A stretch of 64,000 bases of DNA from an uncultured Gammaproteobacteria bacterium. GTDB taxonomy: Bacteria; Pseudomonadota; Gammaproteobacteria; Steroidobacterales; Rariloculaceae. The notes beneath the pieces were generated by a model. The model was not told where the DNA came from and searched no databases. It saw only the letters and a list, made by a program, of their open reading frames with translations. Positions 1 to 50,272 of this stretch are shown here, in pieces. The stretch's first letter is position 1; each line of letters starts with the position of its first letter. Made by a program: the position numbers and the translations under genes. Location of the stretch: positions 270,321-334,320 of the forward strand of contig CAVQPJ010000005.1 in NCBI GenBank assembly GCA_963714705.1, in the 5' to 3' direction.

Positions 1-873
1 ACGAGGTAGACCTTGTTGCCGCAGCGGATGATCGATTCGGGTCGTCGACGACGACGAGCCCTTCGGACTGCGCCCGGCTCGCGAACCGGTACGTGTGATG
101 GTTCACGGCCGTCGTCTCGCGGATGAACAGCGCGTCGAACTCCGCGATGCGGCCGTAGTCGTCGCGGTTCAGGAACTCGACGTCGAAACCGTTCAGGCGG
201 GCGGCACGCTCGAAGCGCTTCAGCGCCTCACGGTTCGACGGCGGCGAGCGCTCGTCGTCGTTCGGTCAGGATCGCGAGGTCGTGCTCGTATCTGACGCTG
301 CGGCCGGCTCGCCCCGCCGGTCCGCGCCGCGCGAAGTGGTTCTCGATGACCTTGCGGCAGGAACGCCCCGTGGTCTCTTCGGAATGTCGCCGACGGGGAT
401 CGGCGTGATGCTGCGCAGCCGCCACAGGCTCGTCGTCGAGGATTTCGCGAACGTCGCCCGCATGAGCGGCATCGGGAACAGGTTGAACAAGGCGCGGCTC
501 AAGGCAGTGTGCCGCTCGGCCAGGTTGCAGCCGAAATAGATGCTGAGCTCGAAGCGCTTCGACTTGATCGTGTGCAGCGAGCGCTCGACGATCTCCTCGA
601 GCTCGTCGTCGGCGCGCAGCAGCGAGCGCGACTTGACGTCCTGGATCGTCGCGACGCCGGGCATCGTGCGATGGCCGCGCGCCGCAGCGAGCAGCGAGAC
701 GTAGTAGCCGGCCGTCTGATACTCGTAGGAGTCGCAGAGGTTGTAGACGCGCGCCTGGCGCATGCCGGCGAGCGCGCTCGTCGCGCAGATAGCTGTCGGC
801 GCTGATGACCTCGGCCGCCGCTAAGGTGCAGCGGCCACTCCTCGGGATGGTCGACGACGATCAGCGCCGTCAT
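1..873 (-). CDS. RimK-family ATP-grasp ligase with RLAN-type N-terminal domain (N-terminal ~290 aa; gene runs off the left edge; frame-interrupted)
   Basis: ORF pieces 499..873 (MTALIVVDHPEEWPL) and 266..763 (RVYNLCDSYEYQTAGYYVSLLAAARGHRTMPGVATIQDVKSRSLL, an RLAN-like motif). Below ~300, my own translation of a third frame reads DLAILTNDDE...ALFIRETTAVNHHTYRF...VVVDDP, typical of the RimK-like pre-ATP-grasp region. The start codon overlaps the stop of the upstream gene at 870-873. Confidence 0.6.
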
Positions 874-1620
874 CGCCGAGCACGTTTCGGCTCGATGACG
901 AGCAGGTTCGCGTCGTACGTCATGACGCCGAGCAGAATGGCCCCGATCAGTCGCTGCACCTGCACGGCATAGTAACGCGAGCGCACGAGCGGGTTCTCGA
1001 GCGGATCGGCGATCAGGATCTCGCGCGCGTCGCGCCGATAGCCCGTCAGCACGACGAAGTGCCCGACGGGCTCGCCGCGGATGTCGTCGTCGGCGTTCGT
1101 CTCGGGAACGTCGCGAACGGCGCGGTAGAGATAGGTCGCGCTCAAGCCCGTGATGACGAGGTCCGCGATTCGAGGTAGCGGCGCAGCAATGACGGATCGA
1201 GGTCGCGCAGCACGAGCTTGCCGCCTAGTGCGCAGGAACTCGTCGTAGCCGCGCGTTGCGGACTGTAAGCGGCGTCCACGGCTTGACCTTCGCTTGGGCT
1301 CGAGACGCTCGCGGATCTCATCGTTCGGCAGCGAGAACCAGGTCGGATCGAACAAATCGAGGTTGTAGGTGAGGATCGTCGCACCGTAACCGCGGTGCAG
1401 CGCGTGGTTCGCGAGGAACACGTCGAGCGTGCCGCCGCGATCGAGCGTCTGAATGTCGGCGATGACGCGCTCGAGCGGCACGTCGTCGCCGTAGTGACGA
1501 TAGACGCCGTGCAGGCAGGCGGGGCCACAGGTGACATCGTCGGGTTGTGCTCGACGACGAAGCCGAGGCCGGCGAAGCCGGCCGCGCGGCAGAACGTTTG
1601 CGCTTGCGCTTGGCGCTCAC
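870..1620 (-). CDS. C39-like (papain-fold) cysteine peptidase domain protein, frame-interrupted, start uncertain
   Basis: ORF 870..1481 (LFDPTWFSLPNDEIRERLE; GEPVGHFVVLTGYRRDAREILIADPLENP). Translating upstream in the same frame gives DDVTCGPACLHGVYRHYGDDVPLERV. The Cys in CGPACL and the His in GHFVVL are arranged as in C39-type peptidase domains. A possible GTG start lies at 1620. Confidence 0.5.
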
Positions 1621-1674
1621 GGCACCGCCTGAAAGTCGTGGTTTGCGCCGGCCCGCGGCCGGCAGTGGGACAGA

Positions 1675-1908
1675 CTACAGCTTCGTGTCGAAGTCGTCCT
1701 GCGCCGTAGTCGTCCCAGTCCGACAGCTGGCGCCGCAGGCTCTGCTGCTCGTTGCGCAGCTCGACGCGCTGGCGGGCGGGCTTCTTGGGTTTACGCGGAT
1801 CGCGCGGAGTCGTCGTCCGAATCGTCTGACGTCGTCGCTCGATTCGAGATCGTCGAAGAAGTGGGCTTCAGCGCCCTCTTCGTCGGCTTGTTCCTTGGGC
1901 TTACGCAT
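1675..1908 (-). CDS. Small highly charged ORF (frame ambiguous in its middle)
   Basis: Within ORF 1675..1977 the sequence reads MRKPKEQADEEGAEAHFFDDLESSDDV... from the ATG at 1908. An alternative frame in the middle reads PRKPKKPARQRVELRNEQQSLRRQLSDWDDYGA. The C-terminus DDFDTKL-stop is at 1675. The ORF sits directly upstream of the peptidase/RimK pair. I recognise no family. Confidence 0.3.
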   Translation of the reverse strand: MRKPKEQADEEGAEAHFFDDLESSDDVRRFGRRLRAIRVNPRSPPASASSCATSSRACGASCRTGTTTAQDDFDTKL

Positions 1909-2141
1909 CGGGTAAACCCTCCTTGCCATGACCACTATCCGGATCTTCAGTCCGGTTGCGCCCACGGGCGGCAACACCCGTTAGACCCGCCCGGGCGCTC
2001 AGCCGCCGGGCTGCGCAACTATAGGCGGTTGCAAAAGGCTGTCAAGCCGCGAAATGACTATGAGAAATCCGGTAGTTATAAGATTTCTTTAGGATTCCGG
2101 TACCACTGACAGAGGCGGCCGCCGGCCGCCGCCCGCAGCGC

Positions 2142-3651
2142 CTAGGTCCGCGCCCGGATCGCCTTACAGAACATGACCTTATGATCACCGGGCGCGTAAA
2201 AGTCGCGCAGCCGCGCGACCTGCGCGTAGCCGGCCTCGCGGTAGAACCGCCGTGTCCGTGACGTAGACGCTCCGCGACGAGGTTTCGATGTACAGGCTGC
2301 CGCCGCCGCGGCGCGCGACGGCCGTCTCGACCTGCCGCATGCAACGCCCGGCCGACACCCTGCCCCTGCGCGGCAGGCGCCACGACGATCCAGTAGAGAT
2401 CGTAGCTGCGCTCGCGTCAGCGGCACATCGCCCCACGCGCAATAGCCGAGCGACGGCTGCTCTGCCGCTCCGCGAAGACGAACGAGTAGCCGCTCTTCGG
2501 GCCGCGCGCGAGCCGCGCTTCGAGCAGCTCGAGCGCGATCGGCACGCTCCTGCGCCGTAGAAGACGCCCGTCGATGCGACGAGGCGACGCAGCGCCGGCA
2601 CGTCGGCGGCCGTGGGCCGACTGCGGTAACGGACGCGATTCGCCGTCACGCGCTCTGCCCGTGCGGCGCGCGACGCGCGCGCGTCGGCAATCAGCCAGTC
2701 GATCGCCTCGTCGAAGCCGATGCCGGCCTCCGCGAGCGCCGCCGCAAACCCGGCATCGGGCGACAGGCAGGGATTGGCGTTGATCTCGAGCACGAAGAGC
2801 ATGCCGGAGGCGTCGACACGAAAGTCGACGCGGGCATAACCGTCGAGCGCGAACAGCTCCCAGCACGCGAGCGCGAGCCGCTCGGCGCGCGCCGCGAGCT
2901 CTGGCTCGACGTCGAACGAGCGCGACCGTGTGGCGATACTCGAAGCTGTCGACGTGCCACTTCGCCGCGTAGCCGACGATCGCGGGCTTGTCCGCGGGAA
3001 AGCCCTCGAAGCGAATCTCCGCGACGGGCAACACGCGCGGACCCGTCGGGGCGCGGCGATCGATGCCGACGTTGAGCTCGCGCCCCGGCACGAAGCGCTC
3101 GGCGAACCAGTCGCCGCCGAACTCCGCGCGGCGCGCTTCGAGCACGCGGCTAGCGGCCTCCGCGCCGGCGACGACCGAAGAGTCGTCGATGCCCAGCGAC
3201 GCGTGCTCGAACACGGACTTCACGATCCACGTGACCGTCGCCGGCCTTGGTGCCGTCGCCGGCCACGGCCGCCGAGCACGGCCGGCGTCGCGATTTCCGC
3301 TTGCCGCAGCAGCCGCTTCGCCGCGACCTTGTGCGACGTCGCGCCGAGCGCCTCCGCGGAGCAACCCGTGAACGGCACGCCGAGCGACTCGAGCAGCGCC
3401 GGCACCACGGCAAGCAGCCGGCCGCGGCCCTCGAGCGACTCGACGAGATTGAAGACGGCGTGCGGCGCGAGCGCGTCGAGCATCCGCTCGAGCGCGCCGA
3501 GGTCGAGCCCGACCGGCAGCGGTCGTCGTGTCGTAACCGAGCCTCGCCGAGCGCCGCCGCGATCGCCGCCGCCTCGAGCAGCGTATCGCTCGAGTCGGGG
3601 CGTCCCGCCGCGGCGTGCGGCGTCGTGCAGCAGCACGATCCTAGGCGACAT
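2142..3651 (-). CDS. D-Ala-D-Ala-ligase-like ATP-grasp enzyme fused to a C-terminal GNAT acetyltransferase domain (frame-interrupted)
   Basis: N-terminus in 3220..3651 (MSPRIVLLHDAA...VFNLVESLEGRGRLLAVVPALLESLGVPFTGCSAEALGATSHKVAAKRLL). Middle in 2417..3364 (WIVKSVFEHASLGIDDSSVV...FVPGRELNVG...PAIVGYAAKWHVDSFEY). ATP-grasp end in 2185..2802 (MLFVLEINANPCLSPDAGFAAALAEAGIGFDEAIDWLI). GNAT tail in 2142..2426 (RRFYREAGYAQVARLRDFYAPGDHKVMFCKAI). Confidence 0.65.
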
Positions 3652-4636
3652 CGAGGCGCGCCGACGCGCAGCGCACGATCTCGCCGATCAGCGCGCGATA
3701 GCTCATGCCGGCCATCTCGGCCATGATCGGCAGATCGGAGTAGCCCGGGCGTCGAGCCCCGCGAGCGGATTGACCTCGATCATCTGCGGCCGACCCGCAC
3801 CGTCGAGCCGAACGTCGACGCGGCCCGCATCGCGACAGCCGAGGCACGCCCAAGTCGCGAGCGCGACGCCCTCGACCTCGCTGCGCAGCGGGCCCGGCCT
3901 CGAGCAGCCCGTACTCGACGATGTTCTCCCACTGCGTCTTGTTGCGATACGAGTAGACGCCCGCGTCGGCGCCCTCGAGCAGCACGACCTCCAGCGTCGC
4001 GAGGGCCCGCGCGGCAGTCACCGGTGCCGAGGATGCCGACCGTGAACTCGCGGCCGCTCAGGTACTCCTCGACGAGCACGGGCTGGCGATACTGCTCGAG
4101 CAGCTCGGTGCAGACCTCGACGAGCGCAGCCCTGCGAGGTCGACGAGCGACTTCGCCGTGACGCCCTTGCTGCTGCCCTCGGCGACGGGCTTCGCGAACA
4201 GCGGCAACGGCAACGTGACGGCTTTGCGGCTTCCGGCCAGTGCTCGTCACGAGCGCGAAGCTCGGCGTCGGCACGCCGCAGCCGCGCGCCACGTGCTTCG
4301 CCATGCCCTTGTGCAGCGTCAGCGCGCAGACGAGCGGGTCGGAGAACGTGTACGGAATCCCGTACGCCTCGAGCAGCGCCGGCACCTGCGACTCGCGGCC
4401 GAAGCCGGCGACGCCTTCGGCGATGTTGAACACGAGGTCGCAGCGCCAACCGGCGACGAGCCGCGCGGCGAGCGCGCGCACGTGGCCGATGCGCTCGACC
4501 TCGTGGCCCGAGCTCCGTCGAGCGCGCCTGCGATCGCGTCGATCGTTGCAGCGGAATCGAACTCGGCGACCTCGTGCTCGGCAAGCCCGAGCGCCAAATA
4601 GTCGTCCTTCAGATCGTAGGTGAACCCGATCCGCAC
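3641..4636 (-). CDS. D-Ala-D-Ala-ligase-family ATP-grasp enzyme (frame-interrupted)
   Basis: 4319..4636 (MRIGFTYDLKDDYLALGLAEHEVAEFDSAATIDAI). 3780..4481 (DLVFNIAEGVAGFGRESQVPALLEAYGIPYTFSDPLVCALTLHKGMAKHV...LLEQYRQPVLVEEYLSGREFTVGILGTGD). 3641..4021 (GVYSYRNKTQWENIVEY...SDLPIMAEMAGMSYRALIGEIV). Confidence 0.7.
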
Positions 4637-4670
4637 GTGGCGTCCTTCGGCGCGCGTGCTGCGCCGTAGC

Positions 4671-5907
4671 TTACGGCTTGCCGAGCGTACCGTCTGGATC
4701 GGGGTAGCGGCACTGCTCGCCGGCGAAGTTGCGCAGCAGCAGGTCGTCGCCGTCGCGGCCGATGACGGCGTCCGGCAGCATGGCGATCTTGCCGCCGCCG
4801 CCCGGGGCGTCGACGACGTAGTTCGGCACCGCGTAGCCGGTCGTGTAGCCGCGCATCTGACCGATCAGCTCGAGGCCTTTGTCGACGGTCGTGCGGAAAT
4901 GGCTCGAGCCGCTGATGGGGTCGCACTGATACAGATAGTACGGGCCGCACGCGAATCTTCAGCAGCGCGTGGAACAGCTTCTTCAGCGTCTCGACGTCGT
5001 CGTTGACGCCCTTGAGCAGCACCGTCTGGCTGCCGAGCGGAATGCCCGCGTCGGCCAGCCGGCCGCACGCCTCGGCGACTTCGGGCGTCACCTCGTCGGG
5101 ATGCGTGAAATGCAGGCTCATCCAGAGCGGATGATAGCGGCGCAGCATCTTCGTCAGCGCCGGCGTCACGCGCATCGGCTGGACGACCGGCTGCTTGCTG
5201 CCGATGCGGATGAACTCGAGATGCGGAATCGCCCGCAAGCCGCGACAGCACGTACTCGAGGCGGTCCTCGTCGAGCGACAGCGGGTCGCCGCCCGAGATC
5301 AGGCAGTCCCGGACGGCCGGCGTGGCCGCGATGTACTCGATGGCCCGGTCGATGTCGGCCTTGCGCAGCGCGCGCTCGCCGCTCGCGCCGACGAGCCGCG
5401 CCCGCGTGCAGTAGCGGCAATAGACCGAGCAGAAGTTCGTGACGAGCAGCAGTACCCGGTCGGGGTAGCGATGGACGAGCCCCGGCACGGGGCTGTGGCC
5501 GTCCTCGCCGAGCGGGTCGTCCTGCTCGCCGGGCGTACGGTCGAACTCCGCGAGCGTCGGGATCGTCGTCCGGCGCAAGCCCTGCGACGGGTTGGCCGGC
5601 GTCGATCAGGCTCATGTAATACGGCGTCACGCCGATCGGCAGCGGACCCTTGGTGGCGCAGGATCGCCGCGCGCTCGTCGTCGGTGACGGCGATGATGCG
5701 CTCGAGCTGCTCGAGACTGCGGATGCGGTTGCGGTTCTGCCACCGCCAGTCGTTCCACTCGGCGGTCTTGACGCCGGGGAAGTGCCGTTTGCGGAACTCG
5801 TTGCTCGCGGGGCTGACGACGAAACGCGCGCGCGCCGCACGCGCCAGCTGCACCGGGTGCGCTGTAGCCGTTGAGTTCGCGGAGATTGAGAGAGGACTTT
5901 CGGACAA
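4671..5907 (-). CDS. kamA: L-lysine 2,3-aminomutase (KamA/AblA-type radical SAM enzyme), frame-interrupted
   Basis: 5299..5907 (FRKRHFPGVKTAEWNDWRWQNRNRIRSLEQLERII). 4865..5578 (HRYPDRVLLLVTNFCSVYCRYCTRARLVG, the CxxxCxxC radical-SAM motif, then ISGGDPLSL). 4609..5238 (HLEFIRIGSKQPVVQPMRVTPALTKMLRRYHPLWMSLHFTHPDEVTPEV...GSQTVLLKGVNDD). 4671..4856 (GYTTGYAVPNYVVDAPGGGGKI). Confidence 0.85.
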
Positions 5908-6089
5908 GGAGTCGTTCGGCTTGCGCCAAACTCGGAGGTTCTTCCTCCAGGGACTGCAGCTTGCTCACCGGTGGTCCAAGGGCTCGGAGCCCATTGTTGA
6001 TTCGTTACCCGGCAATTCCGTCGTTACCTGGGTGGGCAGACCATCTACCCGCAACGAAAGCGGCGTAAATATAAAACGCGGCTCATAGA

Positions 6090-6109
6090 TTGCAAGCACT
6101 TTCTTGCAC
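6090..6109. promoter_or_regulatory. Imperfect inverted repeat TTGCAAG-N6-CTTGCAC in the kamA/gltA divergent intergenic region (candidate operator)
   Basis: Read directly: ttgcaag cacttt cttgcac. Six of seven arm positions are complementary. It lies in a lower-GC 315-bp intergenic region between divergent genes. Confidence 0.3.
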
Positions 6110-6191
6110 CGCCGCGAGGCGCAAACCACGACGGTCACTGCGCACGCGGCAACTGTGTCGTCGCACTCACACTTCTGCATCGAGCCGAGCG

Positions 6192-6215
6192 TAGAATACG
6201 TCCGACGAGTCGGAG
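6192..6215 (+). promoter_or_regulatory. Candidate -10 box (TAGAAT, 6192-6197) and Shine-Dalgarno (GGAGG, 6211-6215) for gltA
   Basis: tagaat lies 26 nt upstream of the ATG at 6223. ggagg lies 7 nt upstream of that ATG. No convincing -35 box was seen. Confidence 0.4.
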
Positions 6216-6222
6216 GCTCCTC

Positions 6223-7517
<1,295 letters not shown>

Positions 7518-7521
7518 CGCG

Positions 7522-8969
7522 ATGAAGATCCTGATGGTCTGCGCGGAGTTCGCCCCGTGGGCGAAAACCGGCGGACTGGCCGACGCCGTAGCGGGCTTGA
7601 GCGACGCGCTCTGCGCGCGCGGCCACGACGTGCGCGTGCTTGCTGCCGCGCTACTCGCATCTCGCCGGCGCCGCGCGGCCGGCGGCACACGCGTGCGCCG
7701 GCCTCGGCGGGCCGTTCCTCGCTGAGCCGAGCTCGAGCCCGCAGCAGCAAGCCGAACGCTGCAGGCGAGCACGCGTCGCAACGCGCCCGCGCGTCTTCCT
7801 GCTCGAGCTCGGCGAGCTGACCGCGGACGCCATCTATACCGGCGACGCGCGCGATGCAGGCCGGTTCCTGCACCTGTCGCGCCGCCGCGGTTGCCTTGAG
7901 CGCGGCCGACGGCTGGCGCCCCGACGTCCTCCATTGCCACGACTGGCACACGGCGCTCGTCCCGGTGCTCCAGCGCCTCGAGCCGCGCAGCACCGCGCCG
8001 AGCGTGCTCACGCTGCACAACGTCGGCTACCAAGGCGTGTTCGCCGACGAGGTCCTCGACGAGCACGGCTTCGCGGCGCTCGAGCAGGTGCTGCCCGCCG
8101 ACGCACGCGCGGGCGGCGGCACGAATTTCCTGCGCGCCGGGCTACGCGCGGCCAGATCGCGTCACGACCGTGAGCCCGACGTACGCCGAGGAGATTCAGC
8201 ACGGCCCGAGTTCGGTATGGGCCTCGAGGACGTGCTGCGCGCGCGCGGCCGCGACCTCGTCGGCATCTTGAACGGCGTCGACTATGGCGTCTGGTCGCCG
8301 GACCAGCGACCCGTTTCTGGCGCGAGCACTACGACGCGACGGACCTCGCGCCGAAACGCCGCATCAAGGAGCAGCTCACTCGAGCGGCTCGAGCTCGCGC
8401 CCGACAATCGACGCTCCGCTGGTCGGCGTCGTGAGCCGCCTCGTCGAGCAGAAAGGCATCGACCTCTTGACGCGCGGTGCTGCCGGCGCTGCTGCCGGAC
8501 ACGCGCGCGACCTTCGCCGTGCTCGGCAACGGCGACGCGCCGCTCGCCGGCGAGCTGCGCCGCCTCGCCGACGCTCATCCGCGACCGTGTGTCGTTCACC
8601 GAAGGCTACGACGAAGCGCTCGCGCACGAGATCTTCGCCGGCTCCGACTTGACGGTCGTGCCGTCGCGTTACGAGCCGTGCGGCCTCACGCAGATGTACG
8701 CGCTGCGCTACGGCACGATTCCCGTCGTGCGCGCGACGGGCGGCCTCGCCGACACGATCCAGCACTTCGACGCGGCGACGGGCACGGCAACGGCAGCGTG
8801 TTTCGCGACGCCGACCCGCAAGGCGTGCTGTGGGGCGTCGACACGGCGCTCGGCTGGTTCGACGACCGCGCCGCCTGGTCGCACCTCGTCCGCAACGCGA
8901 TGGCGGCCGACTTCTCCTGGCCGAAGCAGGTGCCCTCACTACGAGGAGCTCTACCGGTCGTTGCTCTAA
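7522..8969 (+). CDS. glgA: Glycogen synthase (ADP-glucose type), frame-interrupted
   Basis: 7522..7725 (MKILMVCAEFAPWAKTGGLADAVAGLSDALCARGHDVRVL). 7854..8969 (DVLHCHDWHTALVPVL...LTLHNVGYQGVF...VVPSRYEPCGLTQMYALRYGTIPVVRATGGLADTI). The ATG is 4 nt after the gltA stop. Confidence 0.9.
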
Positions 8970-9135
8970 CCCGCTTGGCGGCGTGTTGCCGAATCGGCAG
9001 GGCGGCCAGGTGCGGCGTATCTCTCGTGAACCCCTTTGAAGCTCTGATCGGTCCTCCGCGAGCGTGCGTGGCCTAGCGTCGCGACAGGGGTGCGGCTGAA
9101 CTCTTGCGTCAGTTGCGCACGCACCCAGCCAGCTC

Positions 9136-9336
9136 TTGACCAAATCGGTGTCAACGAGAAACGGGAAATCCCACGATCAGCTCGTGCGCGAGTACGGCGA
9201 ACACATCCCCACGCGCCACCTGCACTTCATCATGGGCACGATGGCCGCCCATCCGCGCACGTTCATCGTCATCGGGCTGCTGCGCTCCGGCCTCGATCCC
9301 GCCGAGCTCGCCAAGCAGAGCGATCTGTTCAAGTAA
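9136..9336 (+). other. Short ORF, possibly the 3-prime remnant of an unidentified gene
   Basis: The 66-aa ORF (…HDQLVREYGEHIPTRHLHFIMGTMAAHPRTFIVIGLLRSGLDPAELAKQSDLFK) has a plausible C-terminal part but an unconvincing N-terminal 12 aa. It lies between glgA and the Rhs cassette. I recognise no family. Confidence 0.2.
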
Positions 9337-9342
9337 CGATTG

Positions 9343-9666
9343 CTAGAGTCGAGAAGGTAATCCGAGCGTACTCAAGACTGCCTTTTCATTCGTGTGATAG
9401 CACCGAACCATATGATCGCAGTACTCCGCGACCGTACGGATCTCCAACGCTCCGGAGTCGATTTGCTTGAGCGATTGGCGATCAGCCACGTCGCGAATGT
9501 CATGAAGCATCTGGTCGTACTCGTTGTACTTGAAGTCCGACCTCCCGCTGCTTCTCAGATCCTCTCCGAAGATGTGCTCCGGGCGAACTCTGTCAGCCAG
9601 CATCCCAAACACTTGCGCGATTCGTTGACGCGCAGCGAGTGCGATTTCGCTATCTGAATACTTCAT
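9343..9666 (-). CDS. Putative cognate immunity protein of the Rhs C-terminal toxin (107 aa, frame-intact)
   Basis: The start is 9 nt downstream of the rhs stop on the same strand, and the gene is small. G+C is clearly lower here (hand counts 29/60 at 9361-9420 and 30/60 at 9481-9540). This is the classical toxin-immunity arrangement for Rhs loci. Confidence 0.6.
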   Translation of the reverse strand: MKYSDSEIALAARQRIAQVFGMLADRVRPEHIFGEDLRSSGRSDFKYNEYDQMLHDIRDVADRQSLKQIDSGALEIRTVAEYCDHMVRCYHTNEKAVLSTLGLPSRL

Positions 9667-9675
9667 TTGCCTTGC

Positions 9676-12600
9676 TCAGTTGCCGCATCCACAGTCTTCC
9701 TGCGGGTTCGATGTAGTGTCGTAGGCCGCCTTGCCGATGACTCCAATGTCATAGAAGCCCTCTCCAACGACAGCGAGCGTGGCGACGGCGCCGGCGACAA
9801 TACCGGCAGTCGTCCTGCCCGCGGCGCGTAGCGCTCTCATCCCCAGGCGGTTCGACCAACGACTGAGTTGGCCGGTCGTTGGATTCAACTCGCCTTTCGG
9901 AACTCCAAAGCCCCTGAGCTCACCTGGCGTTTTTGGCATCGTGCCTACCCCCTCCATGGCAATCAGGCTGCCAAGGGTCAGGGCGTTGCTGGCTCTATTT
10001 TCTCGGATCTGGTTCGCGAACGCGTCAAAGTCGACACACCATGCACCGCGCGCAGCGTTGCGCTCAAAAGCGTCTCGCTGTGGGCCAGGAGGGAAAGTCC
10101 AATACCCGATGCCCTCCAGGCCCAAGGGATCGACGTACCGCAGCGGGTTTCCGTTGCCGTACAAGTACGGATTCAGGCCGCCTGCCAAGCCGATGGGATC
10201 TGATTGCGCGTAGCGGCCAACGACTGGATCGTAATCGCGGAAGTAGTTGTAGTTCAGCCCCGAGTGCGCATCGTAGAGCTGGCCCGGGAACCGCAGGTTG
10301 TACTTGAAATTGCCGAGCGATTGCGGGTTCTCGTTCGGCAGCGCCGTGCCGAAGGGATCGCTCTCCCACGTCCAGCGCGCCTTGTTGTCGCTCGGGCGTG
10401 TCACCTTCCGTGGCGTGTTCAAGTGATCCGTGTGCACGTAGAAAATCCCCACCGGCGTCCCGGGCCGCAACGTCGCCACCGGCGTGTCGCCCAGCCAGAG
10501 CGTCTCTTGGACGAGCGCGCCGCTTGAATTGTATTCCCCCAATACGTGGCCGGCTTCGTCGTACACATAATGCACCGTGCCCGGCGTGCCACCGACGCGC
10601 TTCACGAGCTCGCCGAGGGCGTTATAGGTAAACGTCGCCGTCGTCGAGCCCACCTTCAGCGTCTTCATCCGGCCGCGGTTGTTGTACGTCGCCGTGACAT
10701 TGGAGTAGGTCAGCGCGCTGCCGACGGCGTTGTAGGTGTACGTGCGGCTCACCGCGCCCGCGATCGAGCTCACGCGGTTGTTGGAAGACGAGATCGTGTA
10801 CGTCGAGGGCGAAGCGCCGGTCTCTGAGAGCCGGTTGCCGTTCGCATCGTACGTCCAGCCGCGCGTCGTCCCGGTCTTCACCGCGCTCGTCAGCCGATCG
10901 AGGCCGTTGTAACCGTAGGTGTAGCTGTTCGCCGGCGTCACCGTGTCGGTAGTGGCGGTGGCCCTGAACGCATCGTCGTAGGCGTAGGTCTTGTTGCCCG
11001 CGCTCGCGATCGCCGTCACCTTGCCGTCGGTGTCGAACGTGCGGCTCATCGGCGTGCCGTTGCCCCAGGTCCAGCCCTTCACGGGCCCGAACGGCTCGTA
11101 GCTCACGCTCGACAGCAGCGTCGTGCCGTTGACCGTGATGCTCGTGACCTGGTTGTTCGCGTTGTAGCCGTAGACCACCGCCTGGCCCGACGGCGTCGTC
11201 AGCGAGGTGAGATTGCCGTTCGTGTAGCCATAGCCGACGCTCTTCGCCACCGTGCCGACGGTCTGGCTCTTGCTCGTCACGCGCCCGAGCGCGTCGTAGA
11301 CCCAGCCCATCGAGTGGTTGGCGTCGCTCGCCCCGGTGCGCCGGCCCTTGCCGTACGTGCCCGCATCGTAAGTGAATGCGATCGTCTGATCGGTCGTCGT
11401 GCCGATCTTGTAGGCGGCCGACGTCACGCGGTTCAGCGCGTCGTACACGTAGGTCGTGATCGCGTTGCGCGCGTCCGTCGAGGTTTTCAGGTTGCCGCCG
11501 GAATCGTATGTGTTCGTCGTGAGCCCTGTGTCGGGGCTTGTTTGCGTCTTCAGATCGTCGAAGCCGTTATACGTGTAGCTCGTGACCTTGCTGCGCGGAT
11601 CGGTCACCGACGTCATGTTGTCGTTCGCGTCATAGCCGAGTAGCGTGATGCCGCTCGCGGGATCTGTCATCTGGATCAGTCGCCCGAGCTCGTCGTACGC
11701 GTTGACGGTGTTGCGCCCCAGCGGCGCGTTGATGGCCGTCCGATTGCCGCGCGTGTCATAGCCGAATTCCGTCGTCTGCGCGGCCGTGCCGGCGGCGGTC
11801 AAGTCCTTCCAGAGCTGATTGAGGTTGTTGAAGACGCTCGAGCGCGTGCGGCGCAGGAAGTTCGTCGGATCGTAGACGTTCTCCGCGGTGCGGTTGCCCA
11901 TGCCGTCGAGCGTGTAGGCGACGTAGTTGCCGGCCGCGTCGTCGATGCGCGTCAGGCGATGCGCGTTGTCGTAGGTGTACAGCACGAAGCTCGAGTCCGG
12001 CAGCGTCACCCTCTTCACGAGTCCGGTGGGCCAGTACTCGAGCGTCGTTTGCTCGCCCGCGACCGTGCGGCTCGTCAGGCGTTGGCGCGCGTCGTACGCG
12101 AGCGTGGTCACCACGCCGTTCGGATCCGTGATCTGCAGCGGCTGGCCATGCGCGTTGTAGCTGTTGAAAGTCGTCACTTGGCTCAGCGCGTTCGTCATCG
12201 TTTGCACCTGCCCGCACTGGGAGCCCGTGCCGCAGGTGTAATAGACGAGCGTCGTCAAGTCGGTGGCGTCGGTGCGCGGGCCGTTCGCCGTCAGCACGCG
12301 GCCGTAGGTGTCGTAGGTCCACGTCGTGCGACGCACTTCGCTCGTGACGGTGTCCGTGACCTTGTGCTCGAGCAGGCGGCCGCTCGCGTCGTAGTCCAAG
12401 TCCGTGGTGCGGCCCGGTTCGGTGATCAGGTCTGGGAGCCGGAAACTCGGGTGCCACGTGGTGGAAATCGTTCGCGCCCGCGGCGTGCCGTAGGCTTCGG
12501 TGCGCGAGGTCTCGAGAGTCCGGGCGGTGTCGTGGGTGTACCGGGTCTCAACGCCGTTGAAGTCGAACTTGCTCTGAAAGTTGCCGAATGAATCGAACGT

Positions 12601-13455
12601 GGCGCTCGCATACTCGTTGCAACCCTGGCACAGCAGATTCGAACCCGTGTACCGGCGCTGCCCCGCGATGACCGACGTCGTGTAGGTGCGGCTCGTGCCG
12701 AGCGGATCGACGACGATGCGCGTGCCGTCGGTGTTGTAGGTGATGCCGTAACTGTCGACGCCGCCCGTGTACACGGAGCTCGTGACGACGTTGCCTGCAC
12801 CATAACCCCACGTCACGTAGCGGACGCCGGATTCGTCCTCGATGCCCGTGAGCAGATTCGCTTGCCCGGTCCCCGTGAGCTCGTAGAGGTACTCCCGCGT
12901 GCGCGTGTCGGGATACGTGACCTGCGTCAGGTTGTTGTTGGCGCCGTACGTGAACACGATTTGGCCGGAACCGGCGCCGGGCAGCGTGACGCTCGCGAGG
13001 CGCGGCGGCGAAGCCGTATCCCACTGAAACGTGAGCTCATGGCCGAAGTCGTCGACCAGCGAGGCGACGCGGCCGTTCGCACCGTAAGTGAGCGCCTGCG
13101 TGATGCCGCCACGGCCCGTGATTGTGAGCAGCCGGCCGGTCGTGTCGTAAAGCTCCGCACTGTCATTCGCCGTGATGTAGCGCCAACCGACGAACGCCCC
13201 GGAGGGGTTCGTGGCCACGACGAGCCGCTCCTTGAGCTCGCCTTCGGCCACGTATTGCGTGGACGTCGACCCCGGGATCGTGGCCGTGAAGGCGACCACG
13301 TCACCATCGGGGCGCACGGCGTGCAACACGGGCGAATTCAAACCCGATGCGGCCGAGAGGTATTGAAGATACGAGCCGAACCACGCTTCCCCGAGGGGCT
13401 TGCCATAGGGGCCTTGTTTCGCGGAGTGATAACCGAGGCTGTTGTAGGTGCGCCC
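9676..13455 (-). CDS. Rhs-family YD-repeat protein with variable C-terminal toxin domain; no canonical start and N-terminal delivery region absent
   Basis: About 1258 codons are frame-intact inside ORF 9676..14148. There are many YD-type repeats (YDTTGRLLTITG, YDASGRLLEH, TYDTYGRVLTANG, YDARQRLTSRT, YDNAHRLTRIDD, YDELGRLIQMTD, YDALNRVTSA, YDALGRVTSK...). The Rhs core end reads FYVHTDHLNTPRKVT...RFPGQLYDAHSGLNYNYFRDYDPVVGRYAQSDPIGLAGGLNPYLYGNGNPLRYVDPLGLEG. There is no ATG in frame for more than 600 codons after the point where MalQ-like sequence ends. Confidence 0.9.
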   Translation of the reverse strand, partial: GRTYNSLGYHSAKQGPYGKPLGEAWFGSYLQYLSAASGLNSPVLHAVRPDGDVVAFTATIPGSTSTQYVAEGELKERLVVATNPSGAFVGWRYITANDSAELYDTTGRLLTITGRGGITQALTYGANGRVASLVDDFGHELTFQWDTASPPRLASVTLPGAGSGQIVFTYGANNNLTQVTYPDTRTREYLYELTGTGQANLLTGIEDESGVRYVTWGYGAGNVVTSSVYTGGVDSYGITYNTDGTRIVVDPLGTSRTYTTSVIAGQRRYTGSNLLCQGCNEYASATFDSFGNFQSKFDFNGVETRYTHDTARTLETSRTEAYGTPRARTISTTWHPSFRLPDLITEPGRTTDLDYDASGRLLEHKVTDTVTSEVRRTTWTYDTYGRVLTANGPRTDATDLTTLVYYTCGTGSQCGQVQTMTNALSQVTTFNSYNAHGQPLQITDPNGVVTTLAYDARQRLTSRTVAGEQTTLEYWPTGLVKRVTLPDSSFVLYTYDNAHRLTRIDDAAGNYVAYTLDGMGNRTAENVYDPTNFLRRTRSSVFNNLNQLWKDLTAAGTAAQTTEFGYDTRGNRTAINAPLGRNTVNAYDELGRLIQMTDPASGITLLGYDANDNMTSVTDPRSKVTSYTYNGFDDLKTQTSPDTGLTTNTYDSGGNLKTSTDARNAITTYVYDALNRVTSAAYKIGTTTDQTIAFTYDAGTYGKGRRTGASDANHSMGWVYDALGRVTSKSQTVGTVAKSVGYGYTNGNLTSLTTPSGQAVVYGYNANNQVTSITVNGTTLLSSVSYEPFGPVKGWTWGNGTPMSRTFDTDGKVTAIASAGNKTYAYDDAFRATATTDTVTPANSYTYGYNGLDRLTSAVKTGTTRGWTYDANGNRLSETGASPSTYTISSSNNRVSSIAGAVSRTYTYNAVGSALTYSNVTATYNNRGRMKTLKVGSTTATFTYNALGELVKRVGGTPGTVHYVYDEAGHVLGEYNSSGALVQETLWLGDTPVATLRPGTPVGIFYVHTDHLNTPRKVTRPSDNKARWTWESDPFGTALPNENPQSLGNFKYNLRFPGQLYDAHSGLNYNYFRDYDPVVGRYAQSDPIGLAGGLNPYLYGNGNPLRYVDPLGLEGIGYWTFPPGPQRDAFERNAARGAWCVDFDAFANQIRENRASNALTLGSLIAMEGVGTMPKTPGELRGFGVPKGELNPTTGQLSRWSNRLGMRALRAAGRTTAGIVAGAVATLAVVGEGFYDIGVIGKAAYDTTSNPQEDCGCGN
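9679..10110 (-). other. Rhs C-terminal variable (toxin) domain, 144 aa after the DPLGLEG boundary
   Basis: IGYWTFPPGPQRDAFERNAARGAWCVDFDAFANQIRENRASNALTLGSLIAMEGVGTMPKTPGELRGFGVPKGELNPTTGQLSRWSNRLGMRALRAAGRTTAGIVAGAVATLAVVGEGFYDIGVIGKAAYDTTSNPQEDCGCGN. It includes a Gly/Ala-rich hydrophobic stretch (TAGIVAGAVATLAVVGEGFYDIGVIG). I recognise no nuclease, deaminase or ADP-ribosyltransferase motif. Confidence 0.7.
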
Positions 13456-14919
13456 TAGGGCAGGCGACCCGAGCGAACGGCGCGTTCGCGGCACGCGGCG
13501 GCGAGCGACGGCCGGCACGTCGGGCCACGCGAAGCGCCAGCGCCAGTTGCCGACGACGGTGCCCGGCGTGTTCATGCGGGCGCCGGAGTCGCGCGCCGAG
13601 CAGGTCCTGCATCGGGCACGATCGCGAGCGCGGCGTTCGAGGCGTAGGCCGCGTCGATCAGGAAGTCGGGCACCGGCGGCGTCGGGCCCGACGCCGAGCA
13701 TGCCGTGCACGACGTCGCGCGCATGCGGCTCGAGCGAGGCGTACCAGCCGACGGTCGTGTCGTTGTCGTGCGTGCCCGTGTAGACGACGGCGTTGCGCCG
13801 GTGATGCTGCGGCAGATGCGGATTGTCGGGCGAGCCGTCGAATGCGAACTGCAGCACGACCATGCCCGGCAGCTCGAAGCGGTCGCGCAGCGCGCGCACG
13901 TCGTCCGTGATGATGCCGAGATCCTCGGCGACGAGCGGCATCTCGCCGAGCTCGCGCGCGCAACGCCGTCGAGCAACGCGTCGCCGCGCCCGCGCACGCC
14001 ATTGCCCGAGCGCGCGCCGTCGGCGCGCCCGCCGGCACCTCCCAGTACGACTCGAGCGCGCGGAAGTGATCGATGCGCACGAGATCGAAGCGCGCGAGCT
14101 GCGCGCGCATGCGCGTCGAGCCACCAGCGGAAGCCGCTGCTGCTCCATCGCGTCCCAGTCGTACAGCGGGTTGCCCCAGAGCTGGCCTTCGGCGTTGAAG
14201 TAGTCCGGCGGTACGCCCGCGACGCGCGATCGGCTCGCCGCTCGCGTCGAGCGCGAACAGCTCGCGCTCCCACCAGACGTCGACGCTGTTGCGGTCGACG
14301 TAGAACGGCAGGTCGCCGAAGAGATGGACGCCGCGCTCGTTCGCGTAGCGCTTCAGCGCCGTCCACTGCAGCTCGAACAGGTACTGCTCGAACACGAGTG
14401 CGCGAAACTGCTCGCGACTCGCGGCGCGAGCACGCGCGCAGCGCCGCGGCGTCGCGGTCGCGGTACGGCGCCGGCCATTGCCACCACGGCGACTGGCCGA
14501 AGCGCTCGCTCAGAGCAGCTCGAACAGGCCGTAGGGCAGCGAGCCAGCGGCGGCGCGCGCGCACGAACTCCGCGAACGCGCGCGTTGCTCGCGCCGTCGC
14601 GAGCGCCGCGAACGACGCGTAGCGGGCGTCGCGGCCGCCGCGACGCCTCGAGCCGCGCGGCAGCTCGGCGACGGCGTCGAGCTCCTCGGCGTCGATGAAC
14701 CGCGGATCGCCGGCATAGGCCGAGCGCAAGGCAGTACGGCGAACCGTACGCGTCCGTGACGCCGAGCGGCAACGTCTGCCAGACGCTGAATCCGCCCGCG
14801 CCGAGCCAATCGACGAAGCGCCGCGCGTCGGCGCCGAGCGTGCCGCGCGGCGCCATGGCCCGGCAGCGAGGTGGGATGGAGCAAGACGCCGGCGCGGCGC
14901 GCGGCGAGCACGCGTTCAT
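13455..14919 (-). CDS. malQ: 4-alpha-glucanotransferase (amylomaltase), frame-interrupted
   Basis: 14510..14911 (RRAGVLLHPTSLPG). 14353..14919 (FVDWLGAGGFSVWQTLPLGVTDAYGSPY). 13658..14395 (FEQYLFELQWTALKRYANERGVHLFGDLPFYVDRNSVDVWW...DLVRIDHFRALESYWEVPAG). In ORF 9676..14148: MPLVAEDLGIITDDVRALRDRFELPGMVVLQFAFDG...VVYTGTHDNDTTVGWY...RMNTPGTVVGNWRWRF. My translation of another frame gives a typical tail, PSLAAACRERAVRSGRLP, ending at the TAG at 13455-13457. Confidence 0.85.
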
Positions 14920-48322: not shown

Positions 48323-50272
48323 CTAGTTAGCGAGATTCTCGGCGAGGAAGGCTTCGAGCGCTTTCAGCGTCTCGAGGCGCGTTTTCGCACCCGATAGCCA
48401 GTGATCCTCGCCTTCGAGCTCGACGAGCTGCACGCTCTTGCCGGCGCCCGTGAGCGCACGCTCCATCGTGCGACTTTGCACGATTGGTACGACGGTATCG
48501 TCGCGGCCATGAATCAGCAACACCGGCGCTTGCACGCGCTCGGCGTGCTGCGCCGGCGATGCCGCGTTCAGGTGGTCGGTGGGCGACTCCGCGTCCTCGA
48601 CGCCCATCGCCAGCCGCCAGTACGCCACCGTCGCGCTAAGGTCGCCGGCCCTACCGCGCTGGAAGCCGAGCATGTCGCGCAGGTCGGCGACGCCCGCGAT
48701 CGCTGCGGCACAACGATAGAGCTCCGGCGTGAACGCAGCGCCGGCTAGCGCGGCATACCCGCCGTAGCTCGCGCCGACGATGCAGATGCGCTCGGGGTCC
48801 GCGATGCCGGCGGCGACGACCGCGGCGACGCCGTCGGTCAGATCGTGCTGCATGACGCCGACGCCCCACTCCCCGTGACCCGCCTCCTCCCACTCTTTGC
48901 CGAAACCGCCAGATCCGCGGAAGTTCGGCTGCAGCACGGCGTACCCGCGCGAGGCCAACGCGTGCGCGAGCCAGTCGTAGCCGCTCAAGTCGCGCGCAGC
49001 CGGGCCACCGTGCGGCAGCAGAACCAACGGCGTCGGTCCTGTCGCATCGAGCGGCCGCGTCAAGTACGCGGGTATCTCTACGCCGTCGCGCGCGCGATAG
49101 CTGTAGGCGACTCGTTGCGCGAGCTTGACGCGATCGAGAACCGTGTTCGTGCTCGCGATCTGCTTCGCGGTCGCCGCCTTCGAGTCGAACAAATAGTACG
49201 CCGGCGCGCGATCGGGCCGCTCGGTGCTCACGATCCAACGCGAACGGTCCTGCGACCAAGAGACGATCCGCGGCGACTCGCCGCGAAATGCGTCGTCTAG
49301 CTCGGACTGGCGTGCGCGCAGCTCCGCGTCGAACCAGACCAGCTCGTCCGGCCCTATCACCGCACCGACGACGAGATTCGTATAGGGATCGGTGCGCGCC
49401 GACGTGACGTCGAGGGTGGCGTGCGTGTACAGCGGGCTTTCGATCGCGCCGTTCTCGGCCGAGATCACGTACAAGCCAAAGCGGCCGCCCTCGCTTGCTC
49501 GCTGCATGACGATCAGGCGGCCGTCGCCGTCCAGGCCCACGAGCGATAGCTCCGGAATTGCCACGGTTTGGGTCGCAACCACCTCCCAGGCGACTTCCGC
49601 GCGGCGCAGAATCGTGAGCAAGTCGCGTTCCTGCACGTACTCGAGGCGGAACTTCGGCGCACCGGTCTCGTCGACGACCCAGTCGCGTGTGTACCGCGTG
49701 CCGTCGTCGATCTCTCGGCGGTCATCGTTCTTCGCGTTGACGGCGAACAGGACGCGATTCGCCTCGGGATCGTAGCGCGGCATCAGCACGAGACCCGTGG
49801 AGCGCTGGTAGCCGACGACCTGCGCGCCGTGCACGAACACGTAGCCGCCGATCGTCGCGGCGCCGCCGCCCTGGGTCTGTGTGCGCGCCTTGTCGAGCAG
49901 CAGCTGGCGCATGTTGATCTCGCCGGAAAGGTCTATGCCGTACGGCGCGAAGGACTCGGCCCGCCGAGGTCCGAAGTCGATCGTTTCGCTCGCGAGGAAC
50001 AATAGCGTGTCGTCGTTTGCCCAAACGACGTCGCGGGGCTTCATGACCGAGACATCGACGGCCGCGCCCACGGCCATCGTCTCGAGGTCGGATACCAACA
50101 CGAAGCTGCCGGCGTCCGCTTGCGCGATGAACGCGAGCCGCTTGCCATCCGGTGAAATGCTCGGCGACTGGAGCGCCGGCAGCGCGGCGAAAGCTCCGAG
50201 GGGCGGGCGTTGCGCTTGGGCGAGCGGGCACACGGCGAGCAACATCACGCTGACGACATGGACAGGCTTCAT
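48323..50272 (-). CDS. S9-family serine peptidase (prolyl oligopeptidase / acylaminoacyl-peptidase-like) with signal peptide, frame-intact
   Basis: Single 649-aa ORF: MKPVHVVSVMLLAVCPLAQAQ, then a beta-propeller-like N-terminal half. The C-terminal alpha/beta-hydrolase half carries LLPHGGPAARD, ICIVGASYGGYAAL (GxSxGG nucleophile elbow) and LLIHGRDDTVVP. Confidence 0.85.
   Translation of the reverse strand: MKPVHVVSVMLLAVCPLAQAQRPPLGAFAALPALQSPSISPDGKRLAFIAQADAGSFVLVSDLETMAVGAAVDVSVMKPRDVVWANDDTLLFLASETIDFGPRRAESFAPYGIDLSGEINMRQLLLDKARTQTQGGGAATIGGYVFVHGAQVVGYQRSTGLVLMPRYDPEANRVLFAVNAKNDDRREIDDGTRYTRDWVVDETGAPKFRLEYVQERDLLTILRRAEVAWEVVATQTVAIPELSLVGLDGDGRLIVMQRASEGGRFGLYVISAENGAIESPLYTHATLDVTSARTDPYTNLVVGAVIGPDELVWFDAELRARQSELDDAFRGESPRIVSWSQDRSRWIVSTERPDRAPAYYLFDSKAATAKQIASTNTVLDRVKLAQRVAYSYRARDGVEIPAYLTRPLDATGPTPLVLLPHGGPAARDLSGYDWLAHALASRGYAVLQPNFRGSGGFGKEWEEAGHGEWGVGVMQHDLTDGVAAVVAAGIADPERICIVGASYGGYAALAGAAFTPELYRCAAAIAGVADLRDMLGFQRGRAGDLSATVAYWRLAMGVEDAESPTDHLNAASPAQHAERVQAPVLLIHGRDDTVVPIVQSRTMERALTGAGKSVQLVELEGEDHWLSGAKTRLETLKALEAFLAENLAN

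Follow-up and report, generated by a model that had tools for sequence, protein, structure and literature searches.

What might a bacterium make from lysine with an aminomutase, two ligases resembling D-alanine–D-alanine ligase (Ddl) and an N-acetyltransferase, all encoded side by side? This question is raised by a locus in contig CAVQPJ010000005.1 of an uncultured gammaproteobacterium of the Rariloculaceae (assembly GCA_963714705.1), of which a stretch of 64,000 nt, here called the window, was analyzed; coordinates are positions within this window unless a related locus is named. Four genes on its minus strand, encoding a lysine 2,3-aminomutase (KamA), two Ddl-like ATP-grasp ligases (A and B) and a GNAT-family N-acetyltransferase, form what we call the cassette, and every component of it belongs to a familiar enzyme family. 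Our analysis favors, as a probable answer that still leaves considerable room for doubt, a cassette that makes an intracellular N-acetylated beta-lysine di- or oligo-amide, with genes that are intact in this organism and with a neighboring RimK-like module that is separate from it.

Gene order and boundaries of the cassette

The window was read by six-frame translation, after which translations were stitched across frames. The kamA gene, for a radical S-adenosylmethionine (SAM) and pyridoxal phosphate (PLP) enzyme, lies at 4671..5968 and would encode about 430 residues once four apparently technical frameshifts are corrected. It is followed by ligase A (3641..4636, about 327 residues, at least six frameshifts of this kind), ligase B (2646..3651, about 325 residues, several such frameshifts and a 19-nt insertion at about 3248) and the GNAT gene (2142..2649, about 166 residues), which is a separate gene with a GTG start overlapping the TGA stop of ligase B (GTGA); the last two genes together contain at least eight frame changes. 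The stitched translations matched Radical_SAM and LAM_C, Dala_Dala_lig_C, and Dala_Dala_lig_C plus GNAT, respectively, in Pfam. The KamA translation carries ...AEWNDWRWQNRNRIRS... and ...NFCSVYCRYCTRARL..., together with the motifs CSVYCRYC (CxxxCxxC), AEWNDWRWQ, YQCDP and VVDAPGGGGK. Ligase A begins at 4636 with MRIGFTYDLKDDY, ligase B begins at 3651 with MSPRIVLLHDAA, and the GNAT ends at 2142 with ...KVMFCKAIRART.

The original prediction, made from the letters of the window, had described a KamA-type gene with CxxxCxxC and WNDWRWQ motifs, a 34-nt gap, and two Ddl-like genes overlapping by about 11 nt, the second running on into a GNAT domain. The KamA-type gene is indeed present on the minus strand, the gap (4637-4670) and the overlap (3641-3651) are as described, and Pfam and NCBIfam bear out all of the domain assignments. 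The start of kamA, which had been put at 5907, needs to be moved. It is most likely the GTG at 5968, since the first 18 residues read from there match those of two related loci, L001 and L002, to which the N-terminal peptide VSKLQSLEEEPPSLAQAE is common. The spacer beyond the GNAT, predicted to be a 165-bp gap of lower GC, has the lower GC (0.63 versus 0.70-0.74) but not the length, as it extends for 233 nt to the true next start, ATG 1908, and holds a near-consensus promoter-like site.

The order in L001 and L002 is glgA <- gltA and then, divergently, KamA (430 aa), ligase A (327 aa), ligase B (325 aa), GNAT (166-183 aa), a small acidic protein (76-77 aa), a C39-like peptidase, an RLAN/RimK-like ATP-grasp enzyme and a GCS2 ligase, which leads on to an FGase gene. 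Ligases A and B overlap by 11 nt in these loci, and ligase B overlaps the GNAT by 4 nt (ATGA).

Conservation and distribution of the cassette

One genome per GTDB species was scanned with ligase B patterns, by which at least 596 species-representative loci from about ten phyla were confirmed; the neighborhood counts in this paper refer to the best 80 of these loci, in which all genes were mapped. Both kamA and ligase A were present in 66 of the 67 loci with upstream room, the GNAT was found in 62 of the 63 with downstream room, and all four genes occurred in the same order and on the same strand in 53 of 55 fully flanked loci. The combination singled out by the original prediction is a widespread, self-contained and tightly conserved unit, and fusions join its components. 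Proteobacterial carriers include Gammaproteobacteria (Woeseiaceae, Lysobacterales, Ectothiorhodospiraceae, Chromatiales, Thiotrichales) and Alphaproteobacteria, and the others belong to Desulfobacterota, Myxococcota, Planctomycetota, Nitrospinota, Calditrichia, Krumholzibacteriia, Acidobacteriota and Bacteroidales. Among cultured bacteria, the cassette is carried by Desulfosarcina cetonica (L077) and Desulfovibrio mangrovi (L087), as well as by contigs of the Oleidesulfovibrio alaskensis G20 type (L085, L086). When ligase B was searched with phmmer against 1.84 billion cluster representatives (clusters at 50% identity), 1,011 matches were obtained at E <= 1e-30.

Ligase B is fused to the GNAT in seven of the 80 loci, and about 35 of the 150 best representatives are of a size that fits this fusion. 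Fusions also include an accessory GNAT-like plus HDAC protein (GNAT'-HDAC; see below): L017 has a ligase B::GNAT'::HDAC fusion and L018 a GNAT'::HDAC::GNAT fusion confirmed by Pfam, while the open reading frames (ORFs) of the latter size (750-826 aa) in L030, L037 and other loci match by size alone. Ligases A and B are joined in P0366, and 13 of the 150 best representatives have the size of that fusion.

Of 143 flanking ORFs from about 50 distant loci that were compared with Pfam, nothing was recurrent beyond major facilitator superfamily (MFS) transporters (four) and sigma-54 activators (two), and all-against-all clustering of the flanking genes gave no conserved family outside the window's own clade. 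Since the flanks contain no conserved exporter, resistance gene or target gene, they argue for a pathway that would be self-contained and cytoplasmic. A role in anti-phage defense was considered and rejected, as PADLOC gave no match for any of the eight proteins.

Two additions to the cassette were observed in sulfate reducers. A gene for a sigma-54 enhancer-binding protein lies directly upstream of kamA and on the same strand in L085 (2874-4310) and L087 (2857-4293), and in L085, L086 and L087 the activator gene precedes those of KamA, the two ligases and the GNAT, to which D. mangrovi adds a GNAT'-HDAC gene at the end. This suggests that the cassette may be under sigma-54 control in these organisms; the activator gene is not found next to kamA in the window's clade. 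In L030 (8424-9008) and about eight other Desulfobacterales loci, a Cys-rich protein of 180-195 aa, matching the Pfam family CxxCxxCC (a putative Zn/Fe-chelating domain), is encoded between kamA and ligase A.

KamA is predicted to form beta-lysine

KamA of L002 scored 457 bits against the lysine 2,3-aminomutase of C. subterminale (PDB 2A5H), with similarity to this crystallised clostridial enzyme in the 58% range, and it keeps C125/C129/C132, Arg134, Asp293, Asp330 and the PLP-binding Lys337 (2A5H numbering). Asp293 and Asp330 are the ligands of the epsilon-ammonium group of lysine in 2,3-aminomutase. The score for the family model TIGR00238 was 345 bits (cutoff 199), and the best NCBIfam model was that of AblA (TIGR03820), with 454-460 bits, which is under the equivalog cutoff of 525. 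Because the lysine-binding residues are kept and the models rank in this manner, the sequence supports well that KamA forms beta-lysine. Glutamate and arginine 2,3-aminomutase were rejected as identities of the enzyme, as the scores of 398 and 386 bits were far under the cutoffs and the lysine-specific Asp pair is present.

The original prediction had named an EpmB-type enzyme, acting in the modification of elongation factor P (EF-P), as a possible alternative identity of KamA. In both systems, the beta-lysine that enters an amide bond is provided by a KamA-family aminomutase. EpmB, a protein of approximately 340 aa, forms the (R)-isomer, lacks LAM_C, and is paired with a ligase resembling lysyl-tRNA synthetase next to efp. 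The cassette KamA scored 232 bits against the EpmB model (TIGR03821; cutoff 369) and has both a LAM_C domain and the Asp293/Asp330 pair, the cassette ligases are ATP-grasp enzymes, and neither efp nor epmA was found in L001, L002 or the 80 mapped loci. KamA is thus not of the EpmB type.

Ligases A and B retain Ddl catalytic residues but not the D-Ala-binding residues

Ligases A and B are full-length paralogs (hhalign probability 100%, 26% identity) that source annotations in the databases name D-alanine–D-alanine ligase. Against the Ddl model NF002378 (cutoff 243), ligase A scored 165 bits and ligase B 92 bits, and all other Ddl and Van models gave lower scores. The residues of both ligases were mapped by hmmalign onto E. 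coli DdlB, the reference sequence being verified as identical to 2DLN. The equivalents of K97, K144, E180, E187, K215, R255, D257, E270 and N272 did not vary among 43 orthologs of ligase A and 41 of ligase B. The residues that bind D-alanine (D-Ala) in DdlB were replaced: Y216 by Glu, Ala or Thr and L282 by an invariant Asp in ligase A, and S150 by Ala, Y216 by Trp, G276 by Cys, S281 by Ala and L282 by Gly in ligase B. Since the catalytic residues are invariant while the D-Ala-binding residues are not kept, both proteins should be active, amide-forming ATP-grasp enzymes with substrates other than D-Ala, and the residue analysis contradicts their annotation.

The AlphaFold2 model of ligase B had a predicted local distance difference test (pLDDT) score of 83.5, and its best fold matches in PDB were all Ddl enzymes, at 20-26% identity. 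The cassette ligases have the three-domain fold of Ddl and VanA, the template modeling (TM) score being 0.74 for both P. aeruginosa DdlA and E. coli DdlB, and since the ATP/Mg-binding and catalytic residues are identical, the acyl-phosphate mechanism of Ddl is expected to apply to them as well. They differ in scores of 92-165 bits versus cutoffs of at least 243, in the loss of the D-Ala1- and D-Ala2-binding residues, in occurring as a paralogous pair with kamA, and in their context, as there were no mur/fts genes in the annotated flanks of L001, L002 and L083-L087, in the flank scan, or in the 80 mapped loci. Neither ligase therefore appears to be a housekeeping Ddl, a possibility that the original prediction had raised. 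The mapping did not extend to the N-terminal donor-binding domains, where E15 of DdlB lies, as the sequences of both ligases are too different from Ddl for an alignment there.

It can be speculated that ligase A, with an invariant Asp in its acceptor pocket, takes a positively charged amine as nucleophile, for which a second beta-lysine, lysine and polyamines are candidates. Equally speculative is the suggestion that the apolar pocket of ligase B (Trp, Gly, Ala, Cys), together with its repeated fusion to the GNAT, fits an acetylated substrate.

Free dipeptides are made by other ATP-grasp enzymes, among them BacD/YwfE, TabS, RizA and carnosine synthase, the last of which activates a beta-amino acid. 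The cassette ligases have the ATP-grasp character in common with these enzymes, but no match to any of them was obtained at E <= 1e-5 in PDB searches. The clusters of BacD/YwfE, TabS and RizA carry exporters or resistance genes, whereas none is conserved around the cassette.

The acetyltransferase and an accessory deacetylase

The cassette GNAT is the ortholog of PDB 2R7H (124.7 bits), a structural-genomics protein of Desulfovibrio desulfuricans/alaskensis G20. It gave no match to the AblB models of NCBIfam at E <= 1e-3. Its best curated match was RimI, with 51.5 bits (cutoff 86), and weak matches were seen to streptothricin acetyltransferase (27.7 bits) and, at E ~1e-4, to phosphinothricin acetyltransferase and a tabtoxin-resistance protein.

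An extra gene, encoding a GNAT-like domain followed by an HDAC domain, was found in 25 of 63 loci (about 40%); it is absent from the window as well as from L001 and L002. Its HDAC domain is nearest to acetylpolyamine amidohydrolases (APAHs), with 200-254 bits (254 bits for the APAH of PDB 9GKZ; also 6PHR and 3Q9B). APAHs deacetylate small N-acetylated diamines. The accessory protein differs from them in having the N-terminal GNAT-like domain and in being fused often to the cassette GNAT or to ligase B.

Two further gene arrangements were seen in relatives of the window. In the window's own clade, the genes of ligase B and the GNAT are separated by an APAH-like GNAT'-HDAC gene in L084 (1570-5523) and L009 (10860-12752). 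A set of polyamine genes is located 6-8 kb downstream from the cassette in L001 (18210-20978) and L084 (12626-17603), a region that would fall past the left edge of the window; it consists of genes for agmatine deiminase, a protein resembling deoxyhypusine/homospermidine synthase, arginine decarboxylase and a CN-hydrolase.

Proposed pathway and role of the product

In the pathway that we propose, KamA would convert L-lysine to (3S)-beta-lysine, as its sequence indicates. Each of the paralogous ligases would form one amide bond through an acyl-phosphate, a chemistry suggested by the intact catalytic residues and applied to substrates that we infer, and the GNAT would N-acetylate one amino group of beta-lysine or of the ligation product. 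The pathway would end in a small N-acetylated di-, tri- or oligo-amide of beta-lysine in the cytoplasm, and in the roughly 40% of lineages that have it, the APAH-like deacetylase could remove or recycle the acetyl group for turnover.

The physiological logic of this scheme would resemble that of ablAB combined with that of Ngg, the GNAT/ATP-grasp enzyme of N-acetylglutaminylglutamine amide (NAGGN) synthesis. NAGGN is an uncharged osmoprotectant dipeptide, and it is reportedly made by the bifunctional Ngg together with AsnO. N-acetylation and ATP-grasp dipeptide formation are features of both pathways, and Ngg, a single GNAT/ATP-grasp polypeptide, has its likeness in the ligase B::GNAT fusions. 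In Ngg, however, the GNAT precedes a RimK-like domain and glutamine is used, whereas in the cassette a Ddl-like enzyme precedes the GNAT, there are two ligases, and a beta-amino acid is derived by a radical SAM enzyme, so that the resemblance is one of logic only. No gene resembling AsnO or asparagine synthetase was conserved in the cassette loci or in the flank scan. Judged by sequence, the cassette is best described as a beta-lysine/acetyltransferase pathway extended by a dedicated pair of ligases, and not as a member of the ablAB, Ddl, EpmB or NAGGN systems.

Because ablAB and Ngg/NAGGN are the closest functional analogies, we favor, at modest confidence, a role of the product as a compatible solute or as a nitrogen-rich, cation-buffering metabolite. 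Only tentatively can this be extended to the proposal that a new family of N-acetylated beta-lysyl di- or oligo-amides, assembled by a dedicated pair of Ddl-derived ligases for which a beta-amino acid is a substrate, is a major compatible solute or nitrogen-rich cation buffer of bacteria that live in sediments and soils and represent about ten phyla, with the APAH-like deacetylase gating its turnover; such a role, doubtful as it is, might take in sulfate reducers, Woeseiaceae, planctomycetes and Nitrospinota.

Several points weigh against the proposal of an N-acetylated beta-lysine amide and its role as a solute. The site of acetylation, the substrates of the ligases, the order of the steps and the product itself are what we infer from the enzymes encoded. 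The carboxylate donors cannot be read from the donor domains, in which neither ligase aligns with Ddl, and since the GNAT is not an AblB ortholog, acetylation at N-epsilon cannot be assumed. The osmolyte role would draw on analogy and on the impression that sediment and marine lineages are frequent among the carriers, while the window's own clade comes from soil-type metagenomes. The sigma-54 activator of two Desulfovibrio-type genomes would fit control by nitrogen or stress and not osmoregulation specifically. A GNAT paired with a deacetylase is also a mark of protection and deprotection in toxic antimetabolite pathways and of reversible protein acetylation. Finally, no product was found for the gene set in curated families, structure annotations, defense models or the full-text literature, Desulfovibrio functional genomics included, and the computational survey of amidoligases by Iyer et al. 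2009 (Mol Biosyst 5:1636), which may already describe this neighborhood, lay outside that search.

If the proposal is correct, a metabolite class of at least about 600 bacterial species is still chemically uncharacterised. It would represent a beta-amino-acid branch of compatible-solute or polyamine-like physiology, of relevance to marine-sediment sulfate reducers and soil Gammaproteobacteria, and the crystal structure 2R7H, so far an orphan, would gain a function. The two ligases would be new beta-lysine-handling ATP-grasp enzymes that could be useful for beta-peptide synthesis, and thousands of database entries for "D-alanine--D-alanine ligase" could be corrected. The hypothesis is directly testable, since there are cultured carriers (Desulfosarcina cetonica JCM 12296, Desulfovibrio mangrovi and Oleidesulfovibrio alaskensis G20-type).

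Other products and targets

The possibility that the cassette makes a toxic beta-lysine peptide, secreted or held as a pro-drug, with the GNAT acting in self-protection and the HDAC-like enzyme deacetylating at a late stage, would parallel the logic of bialaphos, tabtoxin and streptothricin. This alternative accounts for the weak matches of the GNAT to streptothricin and phosphinothricin acetyltransferases and the tabtoxin-resistance protein, and for the pairing of an acetyltransferase with a deacetylase in 25 of the 63 loci, and it is in keeping with the fact that several dipeptide antimetabolites are built by ATP-grasp ligases. We nevertheless regard it as unlikely. The flanks have no conserved exporter, immunity gene or regulator (MFS transporters made up four of the 143 flanking ORFs), and antibiotic clusters are not typically conserved so strictly, and in such a vertical-looking manner, across at least 596 species from widely different phyla. 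Moreover, the weak GNAT matches are at the level of generic GNAT similarity, and the deacetylase is missing from 60% of the loci.

Alternatively, the ligases could attach beta-lysine to a protein or an envelope polymer, in the manner of EF-P modification or of RimK/TTL enzymes, and the GNAT and HDAC domains could then acetylate and deacetylate the target reversibly. KamA paralogs do supply beta-lysine for the modification of EF-P, GNAT/HDAC pairs are typical of reversible lysine acetylation, and the best curated match of the GNAT, although under its cutoff, is the protein acetyltransferase RimI. Yet the fold and the catalytic residues of both ligases are those of Ddl, and small molecules are the substrates of the members of this clade that have been characterized. 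There is no conserved target gene beside the cassette, KamA scores as AblA/KamA and not as EpmB, and the HDAC domain is nearest to enzymes acting on small acetylpolyamines (254 bits). A macromolecular target thus seems rather improbable, and a small amide of beta-lysine remains the reading that we prefer.

Neighboring genes and the RimK-like module

On its kamA side, the cassette is flanked by citrate synthase (gltA, 6223-7525) and glycogen synthase (glgA, 7854-8969). The divergent spacer shared by kamA and citrate synthase contains a promoter-like site, TTGCAA-16-TATATT (6068..6095, minus strand), with nine of 12 matches in what was a consensus scan only. A riboswitch or other RNA upstream of kamA was considered and rejected, as an Rfam scan of window positions 1-10000 at E <= 1 gave a single small RNA match at chance level.

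On the other side, a second group of genes begins after a near-consensus sigma-70-like promoter, TTGACA-16-TATAGT (2018..2045, minus strand), which is located between the GNAT stop and a gene for a small protein and has 11 of 12 matches, where 0.3 sites would be expected in shuffles of the region. It is followed by the ribosome-binding site AAGGAGGG and the ATG at 1908. The small acidic protein encoded there (1675..1908, minus strand; about 76 aa, MRKPKEQADEEG...DDFDTKL) matches the PA3496 family of NCBIfam (NF046101; 28.1 bits, cutoff 22). Next come a C39-like cysteine peptidase of about 250 aa (870..1620, minus strand; Peptidase_C39 and C39_2, 24-25 bits) and an RLAN-domain RimK-like ATP-grasp ligase that is cut by the window edge (1..873, minus strand; RLAN 144 bits). 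The ligase scored 49 bits against TIGR00768, where the family level is 143, and gave weak RimK and Ddl_C matches; it belongs to a RimK-like subfamily that is different from the RimK acting on ribosomal protein S6 and is associated with GCS2 and FGase genes. The module in relatives (L001, 11708-16172; L083, 8862-13449) consists of a small protein of 76-91 aa, the C39-like peptidase, the RLAN ligase, a GCS2 protein (YbdK-like) and an FGase-family amidohydrolase. The small acidic protein could be the substrate of the ligase and the peptidase of the module.

The original prediction had grouped all three ATP-grasp ligases into one locus. If the two units did act together, for example in tailing the small acidic protein with beta-lysine peptides, their adjacency in the window, in 13 related loci and in L084 would be explained, and the small protein, being acidic and disordered-looking, is a possible ligase substrate. 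However, cassette and module are found together in no clade but that of the window (13 of the 80 loci, and L084), and the remaining 67 cassette loci lack every one of its genes. When L083 (7196-9137) was compared with the window (1908-6222), gltA directly adjoined the small-protein module and the cassette was absent, so that the cassette appears to have been inserted or lost at the gltA site within the clade. Furthermore, the peptidase and the RLAN ligase are both missing from L003 and L005, although the small protein and GCS2 are present there, and the near-consensus promoter separates the two units in the window. A joint system is therefore very unlikely; what had been taken for one locus is, by these comparisons, two juxtaposed systems, and the RimK-like module is best regarded as a transcription unit and system of its own and not as part of the cassette.

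Relation to the ablAB pathway

AblA and AblB synthesize N-epsilon-acetyl-beta-lysine in methanogens and some bacteria. The cassette resembles ablAB in that an AblA/KamA-type aminomutase is followed on the same strand by a GNAT, in the use of lysine as starting compound and of acetyl-CoA, and in a product that is probably cytoplasmic. It might hence be asked whether the locus is a plain N-epsilon-acetyl-beta-lysine pathway, in which the Ddl-like genes are mere neighbors that encode cell-wall or D-Ala-D-X ligases. The annotation of the ligases, the presence of a GNAT and the ranking of AblA as the best NCBIfam model for KamA (454-460 bits) can be quoted in favor of such a view. It has nevertheless been largely refuted, and we give it hardly any credence. 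The two ligases lie between the aminomutase and the GNAT, occur with kamA in 66 of the 67 loci, and in many lineages form fusions with one another, with the GNAT or with the deacetylase; they score far under all Ddl cutoffs, have lost the D-Ala-binding residues, and had a mur/fts context in no locus examined. In addition, the GNAT is of the 2R7H type without an AblB match, KamA scored 454 bits versus the AblA cutoff of 525, and an APAH-like deacetylase is often present in cassette loci. The expectation that the locus goes beyond ablAB is therefore borne out, as KamA is not EpmB, the ligases are not Ddl, the cassette is tightly conserved, and no curated family or searched paper ties the gene set to a product.

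Frameshifts and the apparent ligase B-GNAT fusion

No cassette gene is an intact ORF in the window, and citrate synthase and glycogen synthase likewise jump frames. To evaluate this, the window was compared with L002, an intact relative to which positions 1-8967 align end to end with 90% nucleotide identity. The alignment contained 100 gap openings, among them about 75 single-base insertions in the window that were outside homopolymers; the window indels were about 5:1 in favor of single-base insertions. Codon-phase (GC3) switches occurred at 5-12 per 2 kb along nearly the whole 64-kb window, with the exception of clean patches at 10-12 kb (no switch) and 48-50 kb (one switch), the 12-14 kb bin having three. 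With the indels taken out, the nonsynonymous fraction of the substitutions per gene was 0.21-0.50 between the window and L002 and 0.21-0.46 between the intact loci L001 and L002. Since the substitutions are as biased toward synonymous changes as those between intact relatives, purifying selection on the window genes is not relaxed, and for the same reason the breaks are most likely technical sequencing insertions, the genes of the organism itself being intact and unfused. Similar fragmentation was seen in L010 and L024, long-read loci of the same clade from metagenome-assembled genomes. In practice, the coding sequences of the window are unreliable at face value, and gene calls need frame correction.

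It is highly improbable that genome degeneration has turned the locus into an array of pseudogenes without function in this organism. Frameshifts do interrupt every gene in 1-9000, and the few clean patches (RHS at 10-13.4 kb and an S9 peptidase ORF at 48.3-50.3 kb) look as if only selfish or recent genes were intact. However, insertions dominate, whereas bacterial gene decay is biased toward deletions, and citrate synthase, a gene of the essential type, is struck as much as the others. In addition, the synonymous bias equals that between two intact relatives, the shifts are not accompanied by in-frame stops or large deletions, and L010 and L024 show similar fragmentation.

The fusion of ligase B to the GNAT, as seen by the original prediction, must be considered in this light. 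The continuity does exist in the raw sequence (ORF 2185-2802), but a single additional base near 2678 is what creates it. Once this base is removed, the ligase B reading frame runs to ...RRAPHGQSA, followed by a TGA at 2646-2648 that overlaps the GNAT GTG at 2649; in the window, this true C-terminus lies in a different frame from the body of ligase B. All of the 120 best database relatives of the fused query were proteins of 317-337 aa that aligned to the ligase part only. As the extra base near 2678 shifts the frame of the ligase B end, a sequencing artefact is the most likely source of the fusion in this organism. The ligase B::GNAT architecture is real in the family, but was not found in the window's clade.

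The patches that are nearly free of codon-phase switches are an RHS-repeat region (10001-13400, about 3.7 kb) and an ORF for a 649-aa prolyl-oligopeptidase (S9; 48323-50272), as compared with about one indel per 100 bp elsewhere. Our guess is that uneven polishing is behind the difference. The RHS region is part of a 1490-aa ORF (9676-14148, minus strand) in which the 3' part of a frameshifted malQ (4-alpha-glucanotransferase) reads into an RHS-repeat protein with eight RHS repeats (GC 0.56-0.66). The C-terminal 350 aa of this protein had no Pfam match and may be a novel toxin tip. Because malQ directly abuts glgA in the relative L083, with no RHS element between them, the element looks like an insertion. 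Directly downstream of the RHS gene, the lowest-GC stretch (0.556) contains a 107-aa ORF (9343-9666, minus strand), also without a Pfam match, which by its position is a candidate for the cognate immunity protein.

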